This document shows, in pieces, positions 1 through 8,974 of a stretch of 64,000 nucleotides of DNA. Source of the stretch: an uncultured Holophagales bacterium (GTDB lineage Bacteria > Acidobacteriota > Thermoanaerobaculia > Multivoradales > UBA5704); contig CAWJGT010000014.1 of assembly GCA_963842525.1 (NCBI GenBank), positions 160,001 to 224,000 on the forward strand. The letters are read 5' to 3'. A program made the position numbers and the translations under genes. Position 1 is the first letter of the stretch; the number at the start of each line of letters is the position of its first letter. The notes beneath the pieces are model-generated. The model did not search any database and had not been told where the DNA came from. It saw nothing but the letters and a program-made list of their open reading frames with translations.

Positions 1-286
1 CCTTGCCTGCACACGCCCTGCGTGAGATCATCCTTCCCAAGAGAGATGGTCATGCTCCACGCAAGCCCCAGGAAAAAACCGTGCCAGTCAAAAATGATGC
101 CAACTCAAAAATGGCATTTTGTCAACGGGGTAACGGCGGAAGAGTCAACTGCTGGAAACACAAGGCTTGCAGCCATCAACGGAGCGGAAAAACGACGTCC
201 CGGAGGGCCCGCGCGAGGGCCAAAAAGGGGGGTAACGGCGAAGCACAGGTTAAGTGGCTTGGAATCAAGGGCTTGGAAAGGCGAGG
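1..286 (+). promoter_or_regulatory. CRISPR leader 1 (truncated by window start)
   Basis: Directly precedes the first repeat. Homologous to the leaders at 3238-3682 and 6558-7002 (shared blocks such as CCAGGAAAAAACCGTGCCAGTCAAAAATGATGCCAACTCAAAAATGGCA and GGAATCAAGGGC.TGGAAAGGCGAG). Confidence 0.85.
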
Positions 287-1534
287 GTCCCAATTGACCA
301 GAGCAGTACGGTGGGATTGCGACCAGCTCGACGCCCGAAGGATAGCCGTCATCCCCTAGAACGTCCCAATTGACCAGAGCAGTACGGTGGGATTGCGACT
401 AGACCTACAGATTCGGAGGAGACGCAGTTTGCGCCCGTCCCAATTGACCAGAGCAGTACGGTGGGATTGCGACGCACCAGTTCGCTAAATGAGGCACAAA
501 TGCTTTCTGCCGTCCCAATTGACCAGAGCAGTACGGTGGGATTGCGACCTGGCGGGCCGGCTGGTGGCTCTTGCTCCCCACGGCGTCCCAATTGACCAGA
601 GCAGTACGGTGGGATTGCGACGCGGTCAGACCGCCGGGGGTGCACTCTCCTGACCGTGCGGTCCCAATTGACCAGAGCAGTACGGTGGGATTGCGACTCG
701 CCGTGAGCCGGGGTCGCCAGATTGACGGGGATGGCCGTCCCAATTGACCAGAGCAGTACGGTGGGATTGCGACCTATCGCCCGTGAAACTCGGACATGCC
801 CAGGAGGTTCCGCGTCCCAATTGACCAGAGCAGTACGGTGGGATTGCGACTTCTTGAGAGTGAGCTTGCCGGCGGGCGCTCCCGCTGCCGTCCCAATTGA
901 CCAGAGCAGTACGGTGGGATTGCGACGCAAGTTGCGCAGCATCGCCACTCGTGCCTCGCGCCAAGTCCCAATTGACCAGAGCAGTACGGTGGGATTGCGA
1001 CCTGGTCGGCCACCGGGACGTTGGTCGTGGCGACGGTGGTCGTGTCCCAATTGACCAGAGCAGTACGGTGGGATTGCGACTTCTCGAGCGCCACTCCTAA
1101 GATAGGCTCCATTCCTGTCCCAATTGACCAGAGCAGTACGGTGGGATTGCGACTGAGCGGAGTCGGGCTTGAACGACGTCGACGAGAAACTCAGTCCCAA
1201 TTGACCAGAGCAGTACGGTGGGATTGCGACCCAAAGTCTTGCCGCAAGCAGACGGTGTTCCCTCAATGCGTCCCAATTGACCAGAGCAGTACGGTGGGAT
1301 TGCGACTTCTCGATCGGGGTCTCCTCGCCAGCCTCGAGAGGCAGTGCCGTCCCAATTGACCAGAGCAGTACGGTGGGATTGCGACTTCTACCATGGCTGC
1401 CGCCGGAACTGCGCTCGCCGCGCAGTCCCAATTGACCAGAGCAGTACGGTGGGATTGCGACTTCTCTGGGCCGGACGTCGATGACGGGCTCTGCGTAGTC
1501 CCAATTGACCAGAGCAGTACGGTGGGATTGCGAC
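287..1534 (+). CRISPR. CRISPR array 1: 17 repeats GTCCCAATTGACCAGAGCAGTACGGTGGGATTGCGAC (37 bp), 16 spacers
   Basis: Identical direct repeats with unique spacers of about 36-42 bp. Orientation from leader position and the ATTG-N-GAC 3' end. Confidence 0.98.
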
Positions 1535-1638
1535 GGGGCTTACGCCCCTCGCACGTCCTGTCGCCCCGAAGGGGCTCTCAGGTAAGGGTGGGCTCGCGTT
1601 GACGTAGATGGCGAGATCCCTCTCTGGCGGCACGGCGG

Positions 1639-1751
1639 CCCTGGGAGCGCGGGCGTCCCGCCCGCCCCACGGTCCTTGTACTTACGTTGGGCTGCCGGCA
1701 AGGCACCGGTCGATGAAAGTCCGGGCGGGCGGGACGCCCGCGCTCCCAGGG
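1639..1751. repeat. REP-like inverted pair (CCCTGGGAGCGCGGGCGTCCCGCCCGC ... GCGGGCGGGACGCCCGCGCTCCCAGGG)
   Basis: Long inverted repeat between the array and RT-cas1. Confidence 0.75.
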
Positions 1752-1858
1752 AAGAAACCCCGGCATTGCTTCCCGCAACCTGCTATACTTCTTTCCAGGC
1801 GAGGATTCTTTCTGGATACGACTGCTTCCCGTTGGAAGCGGAACAGGAGAGCCTTGCC

Positions 1859-2968
1859 ATGCTCGACACGATTGCCGAACGCTCCAACCTCCGGCGGGCG
1901 TTCGAACGGGTACGGGAAAACCACGGATGCCGTGGTGCCGACGGCATGACGGTCGGCCGGTTTGCCACAGACCTGGAGGTTGAGATCGACCGCCTCCAGG
2001 ACCGCCTGCTGCGCCGCTGCTACCACCCCTTCCCCCTGCTCCAGATCCCGGTTCCAAAACGCAGCGGCAACGGCACCCGGTATCTGTGCGTCCCGACGGT
2101 GCGTGACCGGGTGGTCCAGACCGCCGTGGACCTGGTCGTCCGCCCAACCTTCGAAGCCGAATTCGAGGACTGCAGCTATGCGTTCCGCAAGGGCCGCTCG
2201 GTGCGCGATGCGGTTCGCAAGGTGGCTGAGCTGCGCGATCAGGGCTACCGCTGGCTGGTCGACGCGGACATCGATGACTGTTTTGGCAGCATTCCCCATA
2301 CCCCTCTTCTCACACGGCTCGCGCGGCTGCCATTTTCGGAGGACGTGCTCGGCCTTTTCGAGCTCTGGGTGCGCACCGAGACGGAAAAAGGCGTTCCGCA
2401 AGGAGGATCGAAGCGTGCTCTACCCTGGATGCCCTGCGGGGTCTGGAAGGCAGCGCGGCCGCCGCCTACTTCCAGGCGCTGGAAGCGATGATCCCCCAAG
2501 GGCTCGGCTTTGAAGGCCGCCAGCGGCGACCGCCCCGCGATCCCGTCAACGCGCTGCTCTCCTTTGGTTATGTCCTGGTGGGCGACGAGCTTCCAGTCGC
2601 TGCTCGACGGCATCGGCTTCGATCCCTTCATCGGTTTCCTCCATCGGCTCGACTATGGCCGCCCGTCCCTGGCGCTCGATCTCCTGGAGGAATTCCGGCC
2701 AGCCCTGGTGGACCGCTTCACCGCAAGGCTTCTCAACAACCAGATCCTCGGCCGGAAGGATTTCTTCACCACCTCCGAAGGTGGCCTCAACCTGGGACGG
2801 GAGGGCAAGCACCGCTACTTCCTGGAGTATGAGAAGGAAATGAGCACGCCACTGGAGATCGAAGGACAGAGCCTCACCTTCCGCCAAATCTTCCGCCGCC
2901 AGGCCGACCGTCTTGCCGCAGCGTTGACAAAAGATGAGCCCTACGAGAGCTTCCGGCTGCCATGCTGA
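1859..2968 (+). pseudogene. cas1: RT-Cas1 fusion, internally deleted and frameshifted
   Basis: Group II intron-like RT N-half (GADG, PKRSG..R.LCVPTVRDRVVQ, SYAFRKGRS, DADIDDCF, GVPQG). At about 2404-2407 it jumps out of frame into the Cas1 C-half (LRGLEGSAAAAYF, RRPPRDPVNALLSFGY). A +1 shift at about 2591 then gives DPFIGFLH, SLALDLLEEFRP. The YxDD motif and Cas1 N-terminus are absent. Confidence 0.9.
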
Positions 2969-3237
2969 TCCTCATCTCCTACGACATCTCGGACGACCGC
3001 CGCCGCACCAAGCTGGCACACACCCTGAAGGACTTCGGGCAGAGGGTCCAGTACTCCGTCTTTGAGTGCCGGCTGAAGGAGGAACAGCTCACCCGTCTCC
3101 AGGCGAGGGTCACGGCCCTGATCGATACCGAGGAAGACAGTGTCCGTATCTACCGTCTCTGCGCCGAGTGCGCCGACCGCCTGGAGATCCTGGGCCTCGG
3201 CCGGCCCACCCAGGATCCGGATGTCTACATGCTCTAG
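2962..3237 (+). CDS. cas2: CRISPR-associated endonuclease Cas2
   Basis: ISYDISDDRRR ... GQRVQYSVFEC ... DSVRIY motifs, 91 aa, overlaps the cas1 stop. Confidence 0.97.
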   Translation: MLILISYDISDDRRRTKLAHTLKDFGQRVQYSVFECRLKEEQLTRLQARVTALIDTEEDSVRIYRLCAECADRLEILGLGRPTQDPDVYML

Positions 3238-3682
3238 GCTCCACCCGTCCAACAATTTCCCAACGAACCGTGTCATAGAGAGTAGAGGAGGGAAGATGGC
3301 ACCGCAGGACCGGCCTGCCGCCACCCTCCTCCGGCCGCGGCAATGGCCTGTCCTCGCCCGCCACCCGCGGCCGCTCTTTGACAAAAAGAACAACGGCGGC
3401 TCAGACCCTTGCACGCTGACGCTGGACATGAGATCATCCTGCCTCAGGCAAACAGGCGGTCACCCAGGAAAAAACCGTGCCAGTCAAAAATGATGCCAAC
3501 TCAAAAATGGCATTCTGTCAACGGGGTAACGGCGGAAGAGCCAAATACTGGAAACACAAGAGTTACGACCATGAACGGAGCTGAAAAACGACATCCCAGA
3601 GGGCCCGCGCGAGGGCCAAAAAGGGGGGTAACGGCGAAGCACAGGTTAAGTGGCCTGGAATCAAGGGCCTGGAAAGGCGAGG
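3238..3682 (+). promoter_or_regulatory. CRISPR leader 2
   Basis: Between cas2 and array 2; nearly identical to 6558-7002. Confidence 0.85.
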
Positions 3683-5880
3683 GTCCCAATTGACCAGAGC
3701 AGTACGGTGGGATTGCGACCATGGCCATTATTACGGGGGCGGGCGTGTCATTACAGCGGTCCCAATTGACCAGAGCAGTACGGTGGGATTGCGACGTCTG
3801 GGTGGTGGTAGTCATCGATCTGTCCTCCTGGTGGTCCCAATTGACCAGAGCAGTACGGTGGGATTGCGACTACCGGCCGCCAGAGAGGCGGGGATCGCCC
3901 CATGGAATTGTCCCAATTGACCAGAGCAGTACGGTGGGATTGCGACCTACAATAATGCGGCCCGCACCTTGGTGCCGACCGGGAAGTCCCAATTGACCAG
4001 AGCAGTACGGTGGGATTGCGACTTCTGATGCCTAGGGACGTCTTGACGGGCGTCATTGGTCAGTCCCAATTGACCAGAGCAGTACGGTGGGATTGCGACG
4101 AGAGTAGTGTCCATCTTATTTATTAAGTAGCATCTCTAGTCCCAATTGACCAGAGCAGTACGGTGGGATTGCGACTATCATCGTCTGGATTTCGACTAAT
4201 GTTGACTCTAAATCCGTCCCAATTGACCAGAGCAGTACGGTGGGATTGCGACTTTCTGCTGTAGAAACCCATCAGCGCGGCCAGGAACGTCAGGTCCCAA
4301 TTGACCAGAGCAGTACGGTGGGATTGCGACCAAACGTGAGTCTTGCTCGCCTGCCCTCCGTTGTCGCTCAAGTCCCAATTGACCAGAGCAGTACGGTGGG
4401 ATTGCGACGAGGACGGGCCGGCCGGGCCGGCCGGCGTCCTGTACCGGATCATCTCCGTCCCAATTGACCAGAGCAGTACGGTGGGATTGCGACCCTTTCT
4501 CTTCGAGCGGAACATCTGCAGCTTGATTTGCGTCCCAATTGACCAGAGCAGTACGGTGGGATTGCGACTAAGAGGACGGAGAGAGGATAGAGCAGTAGCA
4601 CGAGTCCCAATTGACCAGAGCAGTACGGTGGGATTGCGACTTTCTGATGAGACAGAAAACAATCAGAATCGTGTTCCACTTCCGTTCCGTCCCAATTGAC
4701 CAGAGCAGTACGGTGGGATTGCGACGATCCGGACCAGCGAGGGGAGGAACGGGCAGGGCCGGGTCCCAATTGACCAGAGCAGTACGGTGGGATTGCGACT
4801 TCTGGGCAGTAATAGGTGAGCATACAAAGAAAATAAGAGCGTCCCAATTGACCAGAGCAGTACGGTGGGATTGCGACGAACGACAGGTCGTCTGTCCAGA
4901 AGCGAAGAATGCAGCGGTCCCAATTGACCAGAGCAGTACGGTGGGATTGCGACGAGGACAGCAGGGCGATGATGATGCCCGGTGCCAGGTCCCAATTGAC
5001 CAGAGCAGTACGGTGGGATTGCGACTCATTGGTGAGGGTATCGTACCTCTGGCCGTAGACCTGCAGTCCCAATTGACCAGAGCAGTACGGTGGGATTGCG
5101 ACTTTTTTGCGATCGCCTTGAGGGTGCTGATGGTGTCGTCCCAATTGACCAGAGCAGTACGGTGGGATTGCGACTTCTGCGGCGGCCAGGACGACCAGGA
5201 TGATGGCGACGGCGACGTCCCAATTGACCAGAGCAGTACGGTGGGATTGCGACTCCGCTCCATGAGAGTAGATAGCCATGCTAGGAGGCATGGTCCCAAT
5301 TGACCAGAGCAGTACGGTGGGATTGCGACCACGCTCCTTGGAGGCGGCCGAGGCCACCGCCACCGCCCGGCCGAGTCCCAATTGACCAGAGCAGTACGGT
5401 GGGATTGCGACTTCTCTCCCATGAGCCTCCAAGACTTCTCCGTGGGTCGTCGTCCCAATTGACCAGAGCAGTACGGTGGGATTGCGACCTCAATGTCTCG
5501 AACCCGGGAACCCGCGACAACTTGAAGGTCGGGCCGTCCCAATTGACCAGAGCAGTACGGTGGGATTGCGACTTCTGGAACTCCGGGGCGTCGGCGTTGG
5601 TCGTGGTGGTGGTCGTCCCAATTGACCAGAGCAGTACGGTGGGATTGCGACGTCGCCGCGATACTGCTCCTGGTCGGCGGCGGTGCCGCGTTCGTCCCAA
5701 TTGACCAGAGCAGTACGGTGGGATTGCGACCTCCGGCTCTTCGATCCTGGGAATGTTCCAGTACCTGGTCCCAATTGACCAGAGCAGTACGGTGGGATTG
5801 CGACGCAGCCGATCTTGGCGAGCGCAGCCACAAGCGTCATGTCGTCCCAATTGACTAGAGCAGTACGGTGGGATTGCGAC
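3683..5880 (+). CRISPR. CRISPR array 2: 29 repeats, 28 spacers (about 35-48 bp)
   Basis: Same 37-bp repeat. The terminal repeat (5844-5880) carries a C>T change, which supports + orientation. Confidence 0.98.
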
Positions 5881-5909
5881 TTGCGGGTCTCCCCTTCGTC
5901 CAGGTCGGC

Positions 5910-6423
5910 CTGCGGTGACTTGCAGTGGTGCCGCGGGACCGACAGGATTCACCACGGTGCCATAGACGCTCACTGCGGTGGCGCGCAGTGGTCCCGCGGG
6001 ACCGGCAGGAGCCACCACGGTGCCATAGACGCTCACTGCGGTGGCGCGCAGTGGTCCCGCGGGACCGGCAGGAGCCACCACGGGACCATGGACGCTCACT
6101 GCGGTGGCGCGCAGTGGTCCCGCGGGACCGGCAGGAGCCACCACGGGACCATGGACGCTCACTGCGGTGGCGCGCAGTGGTCCCGCGGGACCGGCAGGAG
6201 CCACCACAGGACCATGGACGCTCACTGCGGTGGCGCGCAGTGGTCCCGCGGGACCGGCAGGAGCCACCACAGGACCATGGACGCTCACTGCGGTGGCGCG
6301 CAATGGTCCCGCGGGACCGGCAGGAGCCACCACGGGACCATGGACGCTCACTGCGGTGGCGCGCAGTGGTCCCGCGGGACCGGCAGGAGCCACCACGGGA
6401 CCATGGACGCTCACTGCGGTGAC
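5910..6423. repeat. 63-bp tandem repeat, about 8 copies, built of three related 21-bp subunits
   Basis: Unit CACTGCGGTGGCGCGCAGTGG-TCCCGCGGGACCGGCAGGAGC-CACCACGGGACCATGGACGCT; contains the palindrome GGTCCCGCGGGACC. Confidence 0.95.
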
Positions 6424-6557
6424 CGAGGGTCACGGCCTTGATCGACATCGAGGAGGACAGCGTCCGCATCTACCGTCTCTGCGCCGAGTGCGCCGACCGC
6501 CTGGAGATCCAAGGCCTCGGCCGGCCCACCCAGGATCCGGATGTCTACATGCTCTAG
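6424..6557 (+). pseudogene. cas2: Duplicated 3' fragment of cas2
   Basis: RVTALIDIEEDSVRIYRLCAECADRLEIQGLGRPTQDPDVYML*, a copy of 3104-3237 with a few substitutions; no 5' end. Confidence 0.92.
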
Positions 6558-7002
6558 GCTCCACCCGTCCAACAATTTCCCAACGAACCGTGTCATAGAG
6601 AGTAGAGGAGGGAAGATGGCACCGCAGGACCGGCCTGCCGCCACCCTCCTCCGGCCGCGGCAATGGCCTGTCCTCGCCCGCCACCCGCGGCCGCTCTTTG
6701 ACAAAAAGAACAACGGCGGCTCAGACCCTTGCAGGCTGACGCTGGACATGAGATCATCCTGCCTCAGGCAAACAGGCGGTCACCCAGGAAAAAACCGTGC
6801 CAGTCAAAAATGATGCCAACTCAAAAATGGCATTCTGTCAATGGGGTAACGGCGGAAGAGCCAAATACTGGAAACACAAGAGTTACGACCATGAACGGAG
6901 CTGAAAAACGACGTCCCAGAGGGCCCGCGCGAGGGCCAAAAAGGGGGGTAACGGCGAAGCACAGGTTAAGTGGCCTGGAATCAAGGGCCTGGAAAGGCGA
7001 GA
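6558..7002 (+). promoter_or_regulatory. CRISPR leader 3
   Basis: Near-identical copy of 3238-3682 at offset 3320. Confidence 0.85.
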
Positions 7003-8070
7003 GTCCCAATTGACCAGAGCAGTACGGTGGGATTGCGACATGGCTCAAGTGTGTGCCTCCCCTTTCAGGCTGATCTCGTCCCAATTGACCAGAGCAGTAC
7101 GGTGGGATTGCGACTCCACCATCGCGACCGGCGGCGTCGTCCTCAACATGGTGGTCCCAATTGACCAGAGCAGTACGGTGGGATTGCGACTCGATCTCCA
7201 CCGGCTGTCCCACTGTGGCGGGAGCGGTGCTCGCGTCCCAATTGACCAGAGCAGTACGGTGGGATTGCGACGTGATCAACCCCCAGGCGCCAGCCTCTGG
7301 AATGAGCTGGTCCCAATTGACCAGAGCAGTACGGTGGGATTGCGACGCCCCAGGCCTTCTTGTCCCCCCGGGAGCCGTAGGCTTCGTCCCAATTGACCAG
7401 AGCAGTACGGTGGGATTGCGACTCTGCTCCGGAAGATCGCTTGACTCGGTCTTGCAGGCCGAAGGTCCCAATTGACCAGAGCAGTACGGTGGGATTGCGA
7501 CTCTGTGAAAATCTTGGAGGCGGTTGCCATCTGGGCTTGCTCCTCGCCGTCCCAATTGACCAGAGCAGTACGGTGGGATTGCGACTTCTCAATTGACGTC
7601 GACGCTTTGCCCAGGAGCAAATCCCGGGACGGTCCCAATTGACCAGAGCAGTACGGTGGGATTGCGACTTCTGCGTTGTACATGTTCTGGAGGCTTCTTA
7701 CTGTTTCTGTTCCGAGTCCCAATTGACCAGAGCAGTACGGTGGGATTGCGACTATGATCCCCCTTATCCAGCTTTCCAGCTCTACACCCGGGAGAAAGTC
7801 CCAATTGACCAGAGCAGTACGGTGGGATTGCGACATCGTTCCCGGGTGCGCAGCCGGAAGGCGGGAAAGATCGGCCGTCCCAATTGACCAGAGCAGTACG
7901 GTGGGATTGCGACTTCTCCTGGACGGTGTCTCCGTCGAAAAGACCTTCGCTCGTCCCAATTGACCAGAGCAGTACGGTGGGATTGCGACGATGGTTTTGT
8001 CCGATCACATGGTTCAAACACACTCGGCCATGAGTCCCAATTGACCAGAGCAGTACGGTGGGATTGCGAC
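7003..8070 (+). CRISPR. CRISPR array 3: 14 repeats, 13 spacers
   Basis: Same 37-bp repeat. Confidence 0.98.
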
Positions 8071-8112: not shown

Positions 8113-8932
8113 GAGCTGCTGCCGCCCCTCCGGGGCTTGGAAATGTTTTTGGCTCTGTACCCGGGGTCGGCGCTCCTCCGTCGCGCCTGACCCCGGGCTA
8201 CACGCCGCCACCCCCTCCGGGGGTTCTCTTTTTTGCCAATGTAACGACCGTTGATCGAATTCACCAGAGCAGTACAGTGGGATTGCGACTACATTTTGAT
8301 CAGAGTGGTGTCTACGTCGAAGTCGCCGCCCTCCTCCCAATTGACCAGAGTAATTCGGTGGGATTGCGACATGGAGGCGGGACGGACTGGGGCGACGGCG
8401 AGGCGCTTGCTCTACGCACGAACGGGTGGCTGTGGAATGGCCCCGGAGGGGCCGCGGCGTGTAGCCCGGGGTCAGCCGCGACGAAGGAGCGGCGACCCCG
8501 GGTAGGGAGACGAAAACATTCTCAAGCCCCGTAGGGGCGGCAGCCGTTTCCGGACCGCGCCTCAGTCGAGCAGATACCGTTCGTCAAACTCGATCTTGTT
8601 CTTCCGCAGCAGTGCGATCAGCTCGTCCTTGAACGAGAGCCGCGCATGGTGCTCTTCCTGGGTCCGGATGTAACGGCGGATCGCCGGCACCTGAGAGTCC
8701 TGGATGAACGGTGCGCGGTGTTTCGTGCTGAAGATGATGTGGAAGAGGAGATTGGTGAAGGTGTTTGCCATGGGGGCGGATTATCTCAGATGCGAGGGCA
8801 CGCGCAAGAGGTGATTCCGAGCTGCTGCCGCCCCTCCGGGGCTTGGAAATGTTTTTGGCTCTGTACCCGGGGTCGGCGCTCCTCCGTCGCGCCTGACCCC
8901 GGGCTACACGCCGCCACCCCCTCCGGGGGTTC
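8113..8932. repeat. REP elements at 8113-8227, 8440-8544 (inverted) and 8819-8932
   Basis: GCCCCTCCGGGGC and ACCCGGGGTC...GACCCCGGGCTAC hairpin cassettes; copies 1 and 3 are near-identical. Confidence 0.85.
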
Positions 8933-8974
8933 TTTTGATCAATGTTGACCAGGGCAGTACGGTGGGATTGCGAC
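8253..8974 (+). CRISPR. Three degenerate trailer repeats (8253-8289, 8334-8370, 8938-8974) interrupted by REPs and a transposase remnant
   Basis: All keep the 3' GGGATTGCGAC, with mismatches in the rest of the repeat. Confidence 0.85.
8562..8771 (-). pseudogene. tnpA: IS200-like/REP-associated Y1 transposase, internally deleted
   Basis: N-terminus (FHIIFSTKHR) is joined directly to the C-terminus (SQV..IRRYIRTQEEHH). The HUH core is missing relative to the full homolog at 44224-44694. Confidence 0.85.

Follow-up and report, generated by a model that had tools for sequence, protein, structure and literature searches.

The locus analysed here raises a simple question: why do so many spacers in one set of CRISPR arrays begin with the same four letters? 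The stretch of DNA concerned, 64,000 nucleotides (nt) long and called the window in the following, stems from an uncultured Holophagales bacterium (assembly GCA_963842525.1) and corresponds to positions 160001-224000 of contig C14 (CAWJGT010000014.1) in a genome of 9.95 Mb and 34 contigs. Three arrays with an identical 37-nt repeat, found by exact and fuzzy repeat matching, lie on its + strand and hold 57 spacers in total, of which 13 start with TTCT. A first-pass annotation, made from the letters alone, had noticed this bias and ascribed it to end selection, initiation of complementary DNA (cDNA) or nucleotide addition by a fusion-type reverse transcriptase (RT), "this RT-Cas1". The TTCT start is real, very strong and conserved across 33 genomes. 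As to its cause, we lean, with modest confidence, towards a templated end-selection motif of the adaptation module that filled these arrays. The arrays and their leaders are arranged as follows (positions in the window).

67..286, + strand: leader of array 1; this leader exists in three nearly identical copies (family D5)
287..1534, + strand: CRISPR array 1, 16 spacers set between 17 repeats of 37 nt; TTCT starts at 851, 1081, 1307, 1386 and 1462
3463..3682, + strand: leader of array 2, a family D5 copy
3683..5880, + strand: CRISPR array 2, 29 repeats (the last with one change) and 28 spacers; TTCT starts at 4023, 4800, 5175, 5412 and 5573, TTTCT starts at 4253 and 4641
6783..7002, + strand: leader of array 3, a family D5 copy
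7003..8070, + strand: CRISPR array 3, 14 repeats and 13 spacers; TTCT starts at 7586, 7669 and 7914, TCTG starts at 7423 and 7502
8253..8974, + strand: three degenerate orphan repeats (about 8253-8289, 8334-8370 and 8938-8974), with TTTCTG after the last one

The meaning of a spacer start depends on the orientation of the arrays. We placed the leader upstream and let the repeat end in ATTGCGAC, because the leader copies lie upstream of the arrays, because mutated repeats are located at the leader-distal array ends, and because neither exact nor fuzzy matching found a copy of the 37-nt repeat on the minus strand of the window. The leader copies, compared over 259 nt (67-325, 3463-3721 and 6783-7041; identity 100, 94 and 93%), each run into the first repeat. 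Elsewhere in the genome, the same repeat forms one small array on contig C22 (8 repeats) and occurs as orphan repeats on contigs C3, C12 and C14.

All counts of the first-pass annotation were right when we repeated them: 5 of 16, 5 of 28 and 3 of 13 spacers of the successive arrays start with TTCT, two further spacers with TTTCT and two with TCTG. Its chance level of 1 in 256 came close to the rate measured inside the spacers, where TTCT was present at 9 of 2324 positions (0.39%). When all spacers of the genome with this repeat were taken together (57 in the window and 7 others), 14 of 64 started with TTCT (binomial p 6.8e-21). By position, TTCT is not a protospacer adjacent motif (PAM), as had been stated before, since it fills positions 1-4 of the spacer and not the protospacer flank.

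Enrichment in a larger spacer set had been named as the check on this bias, and we therefore turned to relatives. The repeat family was present in 26 of 92 genomes of the same family with at most 3 mismatches to a 31-nt pattern, and more diverged copies were present in further genomes. Arrays were delimited with a 14-nt repeat core, allowing at most 2 or 3 mismatches, and a spacing filter. This yielded 1037 spacers, 1036 of them unique, of which 1030 from 33 genomes were kept, six outside 30-52 nt being dropped; one L066 array with a different repeat (21 spacers, none with TTCT) was left out. Spacer 3' ends presume a 37-nt repeat, and spacer starts are free of this assumption. Phase tests were restricted to spacers of 34-52 nt, and some counts use earlier, smaller sets of 738 spacers (offsets) or 744 spacers (duplicates and genome matching). 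The bias held. TTCT opened 123 of the 1030 spacers against 4.6 expected from the internal rate of 0.45%, a 27-fold enrichment (p 3.5e-129), and 26 of the 33 genomes had at least one such spacer. Across window and relatives, roughly one eighth to one fifth of the spacers carry the motif.

The word is narrowly defined. Single-base variants stayed near background among the 1030 spacers, with TTCA at 10, TTCC at 8, TTCG at 9, ATCT at 3, GTCT at 7, CTCT at 6, TACT at 1, TGCT at 8, TCCT at 5, TTAT at 2, TTGT at 6 and TTTT at 9, from which we conclude that all four letters are specified. The position, too, is defined to within about one base: 44 spacers started with TTTCT and 63 with TCT, and in three a single A, C or G preceded TTCT. 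Counted over the set of 738 spacers, the motif was found at offset 0 in 89 spacers, at offset 1 in 33, at offset 2 in 8 and at offset 3 in 5, and no spacer started with TTTTCT. At the far end of the spacers, AGAA occurred 2 times and TTCT 6 times in 1030. This is thus a real and strong signature confined to one spacer end, which it marks and by which the orientation of the spacer is fixed, a property shared with PAMs.

Could the signature be an artefact of a misplaced repeat boundary, of duplicated spacers or of composition? We regard this as barely conceivable. The repeat 3' end GCGAC is invariant and the base after it varies. Among 744 spacers compared all against all, there was one duplicate pair and there were no overlaps, and the TTCT spacers were all distinct, so they represent independent events. 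Composition is answered by the low internal TTCT rate (0.39-0.45%) and by a flat control from type I-C arrays, to which we return below. TTCT spacers had a mean length of 40.8 nt and the others of 40.4 nt; the idea that the former are longer by an untrimmed piece was rejected on these near-equal values.

The type I-C control came from the same genomes. In the present genome, the I-C system on contig C3 comprises Cas3, Cas5d, Cas7, Cas4, Cas1 and Cas2 and an array of 54 spacers. Together with 20 further I-C regions of the family, 16 of 21 regions contained arrays, with 839 unique spacers from 16 genomes. Of these, 2 started with TTCT, 2 with TTTCT and 15 with TCT (Fisher p 9e-31 against the type III set), and within the present genome the TTCT share was 14 of 64 in the type III arrays versus 0 of 54 in the I-C array. 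Since I-C spacers of the same genomes are flat, the bias belongs to the type III-D arrays and not to host nucleases in general or to the composition of host, phage or target. The first-pass annotation had proposed a comparison with arrays of an RT-less Cas1; in ours, which concerns type I-C and not type III, the bias was absent (2 of 839). As a side result, internal TTCT occurred at 0.45% in type III spacers and at 0.13% in the I-C spacers of these genomes, a 3.4-fold difference, which indicates that the two systems sample a different composition or strand.

The same control bears on the idea that TTCT is a type I-C PAM carried over, with the I-C Cas1-Cas2-Cas4 proteins filling the type III arrays in trans and leaving the PAM untrimmed. 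No full Cas1 was found in this genome other than that of the I-C system on contig C3, the PAM listed for I-C is TTC (Vink et al. 2021, PMC8482600), the type III-linked Cas1 scores close to I-C, I-D and I-G Cas1 models, and the type III spacers share the codon lock of I-C spacers described below. However, the fourth base is fixed (TTCT 123 versus 27 for TTCA, TTCC and TTCG together), and the first base of I-C spacers showed no preference for T (T 0.31). The one contig of genome G050 encodes just one Cas1, which belongs to the type III-linked kind, and yet 13 of its 64 spacers start with TTCT. Spacers measure 32-36 nt in I-C and 35-48 nt in type III, the repeats differ, and in relatives the type III arrays come with their own Cas1-Cas2. 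We consider this explanation very improbable.

Whether the four letters were copied from the target or added to it is the central point, and here the codon structure of the targets helped. Host genes have a GC content of 0.90 at codon position 3, and type III spacers showed a GC periodicity of 0.27 versus 0.17 in shuffles. In TTCT spacers, from position 7 onward, the GC content was 0.513, 0.589 and 0.647 at positions 1, 2 and 0 mod 3, respectively (n = 121), a spread reached in 0 of 1000 phase rotations. The C of TTCT thereby falls on the complement of the wobble base. Internal TTCT, which is certainly templated, was accompanied by the same peak phase (0.504, 0.516 and 0.646; n = 102), and in the TTTCT class the low-GC phase shifted by one, moving with the motif. 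The base following a TTCT start was G in 50, T in 37, C in 28 and A in 8 spacers. The depletion of A (8 of 123 against a background of 19%, p 6e-5) fits templating, as it is what one would expect were CTN the complement of an in-frame NAG codon other than the stop TAG.

All other spacer classes were codon-locked at the start as well, and not at the end, with third-position GC at positions 3, 6, 9 and so on. A preference for AT at positions 1-2 was rejected as the only cause, because the lock persisted in type III spacers starting with two G/C bases (p 0.004). I-C spacers showed the same start lock, explained there by a templated flank motif, the TTC PAM. In type III spacers, the lock hints at a further, unseen flank preference of the type III module. 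Only full copying gives the TTCT class the start-to-codon lock of the other spacers, and codon phase thus speaks for end selection by a templated motif (AGAA-3' on the strand of target sense) rather than for an untemplated tail. The four bases may well have been copied from the target.

The opposite proposal, in which the RT makes the motif by adding an untemplated AGAA purine tail to a captured RNA or DNA 3' end or by copying a fixed template, so that TTCT is not target sequence, has a precedent that makes it worth a careful look. The RT-Cas1/Cas2 of Marinomonas mediterranea adds non-coded 3' tails, preferring purines (A >> G) and pausing after about 4 nt, and in spacers derived from RNA, 1-6 bases at a junction are non-coded (Mohr et al. 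2024, PMC11014452). As in those tails, the bases seen here stand at one spacer-repeat junction and are rich in purines on the RNA-sense strand; AGAA consists of four purines, and the series spans 3-5 nt. But a transferase with A >> G predicts mainly TTTT, and we counted 9 TTTT against 123 TTCT. Unlike the variable, A-dominated tails of M. mediterranea, the word is fixed, with single-base variants near background. The remainder of the spacer is codon-phased to the motif, in the same phase as for internal TTCT. If copying started from position 5, positions 7, 10 and 13 should be richest in GC; they were actually the poorest (0.513). The TTCT share does not track the RT's present state either, as detailed below, and neither repeat nor leader showed a fixed template having a 5' TTCT. 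We judge this proposal unlikely. Of the three mechanisms in the first-pass annotation, plain untemplated addition fits worst, given the rarity of TTTT and the codon phasing.

Several observations weigh against templated end selection or limit it. The periodicity signal is statistical only, and no usable protospacer was found anywhere, so the support for templating is indirect. When 744 spacers were compared with the whole own genome (blastn-short), there was one diverged self-like match and one match of 31/35, neither of them to a TTCT spacer. None of 50,697 phage records matched the 7.8-kb array region at E <= 1 (blastn), and six exact spacer scans of viral contigs and two of metagenome contigs were likewise empty. 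An exact scan of genome contigs returned the source array only, and two spacer patterns searched with at most 3 mismatches in 92 family genomes returned source arrays only. BLAST of the array region over the family returned arrays and cas genes only among the best 3 candidates per genome, and could not reveal protospacers; nor did the all-against-all comparison of the 744 spacers contain overlapping spacers able to reveal an end. Furthermore, 78% of the spacers fall outside the TCT/TTCT/TTTCT class, which makes the motif a preference and no requirement. The predicted antisense frame was stop-free in only 82-86% of TTCT spacers, little above the other frames, so many spacers deviate from a simple NAG|AA picture. 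The extra base of the +1 class was T in 44 of 47, as an added A would predict, whereas a copied wobble base in GC-rich genes should mostly be G or C; this T may stem from addition and not from copying, or the motif may extend further. Internal TTCT was followed by T in 61, C in 36, G in 26 and A in 15 cases, which differs from the base after start TTCT. Finally, natural arrays cannot separate an acquisition bias from later selection.

The self-like match pairs the spacer at 7115-7153 with a host gene on contig C25 (295460-295496), with 34 of 37 aligned bases identical and the first and last spacer bases mismatched.

How might templated end selection work? Cas1-Cas2 integrates a prespacer by letting the 3' OH of each of its strands attack the 5' end of one repeat strand. 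In the scheme we favour, the module would consist of a small group-II-intron-like RT, Cas1 and Cas2, encoded by separate genes and attached to a type III-D system. It would prefer prespacers where the target-sense strand reads 5'-(N)AGAA-3', and this strand would be cut, or would end, after the last A, give or take one base, giving rise to the TCT, TTCT and TTTCT series. The strand ending in AGAA-3' would always be joined to the bottom strand of the repeat, which would put TTCT against the leader-near repeat, adjoining the 5' tag of the CRISPR RNA (crRNA). The motif would then fix spacer orientation as the PAM-side end does in type I, with the recognition word kept whole within the spacer. We infer the joining chemistry as well as a selection at acquisition rather than later. 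The reader of the motif might be Cas1-Cas2 itself or a trimming nuclease stopping there; a second candidate is the RT, starting cDNA opposite AGAA, which would give the right strand and the right end.

Selection after acquisition would place the cause elsewhere: crRNAs with UUCU after the 5' tag might work better or persist longer. In natural arrays, the effects of acquisition and of selection are mixed (Vink et al. 2021, PMC8482600), the crRNA stretch adjoining the tag is where the motif is located, and a functional antisense bias can be obtained through selection as well. Against this, a 27-fold enrichment of four bases needs a very large fitness gain, yet 78% of the retained spacers do without the motif. 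The series of offsets -1, 0 and +1, with the +1 base almost always T, resembles a cutting or joining step and not an optimum of pairing. The TTCT share was equal near and far from the leader, flat by array quarter (19/139, 16/125, 23/130 and 18/121), with no enrichment with age. We therefore hold this explanation to be quite unlikely.

The second candidate reader leads to an RNA-based variant, in which either the RT starts cDNA opposite AGAA or the module takes pieces of messenger RNA (mRNA) ending in frame after codon base 2, the RNA-defined end always being joined at the same side of the repeat. The mRNA option would be suggested by the start-to-codon lock of all spacer classes, if this stemmed from ribosome-linked cleavage and not from base preference. 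CRISPR-associated RTs can prime de novo, a DNA copy being started on RNA at preferred template sites and then integrated (Zabrady et al. 2023, PMC10415136). A start opposite AGAA would likewise yield a cDNA beginning with TTCT, of correct end and strand, but the preference given in that work is for a CC template, starting with G, and a start with T is not described there. We treat the RNA-based variant as a doubtful possibility. Were it true, a type III system would possess an inherent means of placing spacers such that their crRNA is complementary to the transcript. To our knowledge, no RT-Cas1 system studied so far orients spacers strictly.

The spacers do lean antisense to genes. A pattern of ribosome site plus ATG was found antisense in 31 spacers and in reverse complement in 9 (n = 1030, p 7e-4). 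Non-motif spacers with this pattern started after codon position 2 of the ATG-defined frame in 14 of 21 cases. Several of the antisense spacers with a ribosome-binding site and ATG, of which the one at 7502-7548 in the window is an example, end 2-17 nt past the start codon, which indicates that translation start regions are among the targets.

What is left of the machinery next to the arrays of the window? Between arrays 1 and 2 we found the following.

1859..2404, + strand: remnant of a CRISPR-associated RT, residues 1-190 of a 309-residue intact homologue, the YxDD motif (residue 219) being lost
2380..2965, + strand: Cas1 remnant, residues 137-207 and 204-331 of a 331-residue homologue in two frames
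2962..3177, + strand: cas2, apparently whole (TIGR01573, 77 bits)

The first 136 residues of this Cas1 are absent (profile positions 1-135), and a frameshift lies near 2585-2592. Judged by these reading frames, the genome has no working RT-containing adaptation module, the RT and Cas1 next to the arrays both being broken, and with the local module dead the spacers of the window record past activity. Other RT matches in the genome were at most 41% identical and belong to multi-copy elements; among them, at least six near-identical copies of a group-II-intron-type RT (contigs C12, C6, C19, C9, C34, C1 and others) are 40% identical to the CRISPR-linked RT.

Intact relatives (L046, L050 and L016) show what the module looked like: an RT frame of 312 amino acids, a stop codon, Cas1 (331 amino acids) in a frame of its own, and Cas2. 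A family-wide search likewise found the open frames around type III-linked Cas1 to be 331-332 amino acids long. The RT of L046, beside cas1-cas2, matched TIGR04416 with 269 bits, below the cut-off of 300, and has YSDD at residue 219; a group II intron-like RT with YxDD is thus present in relatives only, the copy in the window ending at residue 190. The "RT-Cas1" of the first-pass annotation has to be abandoned in both senses: RT and Cas1 are not fused, being separate frames in relatives, and the window holds no intact copy, only fragments in three frames.

The RT and Cas1 aligned over full length in genomes G032, G056, G051, G041, G043 and G002, with near-complete alignments in G086 and G084; the RT was internally deleted, truncated or gone in G000, G050, G074, G072, G057, G071, G015 and G047. 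With an intact module, TTCT opened 10 of 60 of the five leader-nearest spacers and 24 of 177 of the rest; with a dead RT, the values were 27 of 115 and 36 of 163. The dependence of the bias on the RT, which had been part of the original proposal, is accordingly not shown, the TTCT share being similar with intact and dead RT, although the arrays are historical records and this test is not decisive.

Decay of the RT-Cas1-Cas2 module has taken place independently in the window (1859-3177) and in many relatives (loci L040, L036, L047, L066, L070, L052 and L079). The routes include various deletions inside the RT, fusion of the RT to mid-Cas1 and shifts of the Cas1 frame; the array repeats stay perfect nonetheless. 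In the window itself, none of the 16 leader-nearest spacers of the three arrays starts with TTCT, as opposed to 13 of the other 41 (Fisher p 0.012), and the same 16 spacers have narrower lengths, 36-40 nt plus one of 44. A loss of TTCT near the leader after RT decay was considered and dropped, since the boundary had been picked post hoc and no such trend was present across the arrays of all relatives; the 27 of 115 TTCT starts among the first five spacers of RT-dead genomes contradict it.

The effector genes lie directly upstream of the window, in cluster L011 (C14:140001-160000), with Cas6 (PF10040) and further repeat-associated mysterious proteins. Matches to Cas10/Csm1 (37 bits) and Csx10 (53 bits) were below cut-off and that to Csx7 (119 bits) was above. 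This gene content has the hallmarks of subtype III-D, a prediction that draws in part on the below-cut-off matches.

The closest known systems are the RT-Cas1/Cas2 type III modules of M. mediterranea (III-B), Vibrio vulnificus (III-D) and Fusicatenibacter saccharivorans, in which a group II intron-type RT likewise stands beside Cas1, Cas2 and type III arrays and in which spacer lengths are broad, as here (35-48 nt). Unlike the RT-Cas1 fusions, RT and Cas1 are here separate frames with a stop codon between them in intact relatives. For the V. vulnificus RT-Cas1, AT-rich spacer ends on both sides, a GC-rich first flank base, "no conserved PAM" and a slight antisense bias were reported (PMC6821258). 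The lean to the antisense strand of genes and the AT-rich spacer positions 1-2 are common to that system and ours; in contrast to its symmetric compositional bias, the arrays studied here carry one fixed word of four bases, confined to a single end. PMC10415136 states for M. mediterranea that protospacers showed no preference in sequence, and in the studied type III-A modules there was neither a motif nor an orientation bias (PMC8860593). 

The comparison with type I is instructive. In type I-E, the AAG motif supplies the last G of the repeat. The motif of our arrays resembles the PAM-side end of type I in that it marks the end at the leader-near repeat, sets orientation and stays in the array, as part of the type I motif does (Vink et al. 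2021, PMC8482600); a PAM-derived base has been suggested for the C of the I-C repeat. It differs in that the whole motif is inside the spacer and in that the effector is of type III, for which a PAM is not needed. A PAM of any sort is seen in only 8% of the type III repeat clusters that have a cas1-cas2 pair of their own (Vink et al. 2021, PMC8482600).

Our search of the literature on acquisition motifs of RT-Cas1, on TTCT in type III spacers and on RT/Cas1 of Acidobacteria found no description of a TTCT word; it did not extend to the supplementary per-cluster PAM data in Vink et al. 2021 or to figure S1 in Mohr et al. 2024, and a search by terms showed no passage about motifs at spacer ends in Silas et al. 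2017. TTCT looks like a previously undescribed mark of the machinery that captures and orients spacers. The reading we prefer is that of a new spacer-end preference of RT-linked adaptation, a variant defined by its sequence, whose strict placement at one end is the most interesting aspect. It bears on how type III systems choose spacers and place them in useful orientation, and would be the first acquisition signature that is both defined by sequence and linked to orientation in a type III module having a Cas1-Cas2 of its own. The word provides a concrete test object of two or three small genes, and RT-Cas1 recorders of the Record-seq type would benefit from a module that orients spacers. If the bases were untemplated after all, spacer-to-target mapping for these arrays would need end trimming.

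Some further features of the region may be recorded. Between arrays 2 and 3, about eight units of 63 nt form a tandem repeat (5847-6539) that is 91-92% identical to tracts on contigs C23 and C34; tandem tracts of 62/63 nt occur at dozens of sites in the genome. Downstream of array 3, a 118-nt direct repeat (8113-8230 and 8819-8936, 99% identity) flanks a short minus-strand open reading frame. Degenerate CRISPR repeats follow each copy, which suggests a duplication of the array tail. In the effector cluster L011, finally, we found signalling-type accessory proteins, namely SAVED-CHAT, a TPR-CHAT of 1135 amino acids and TIR-SAVED.

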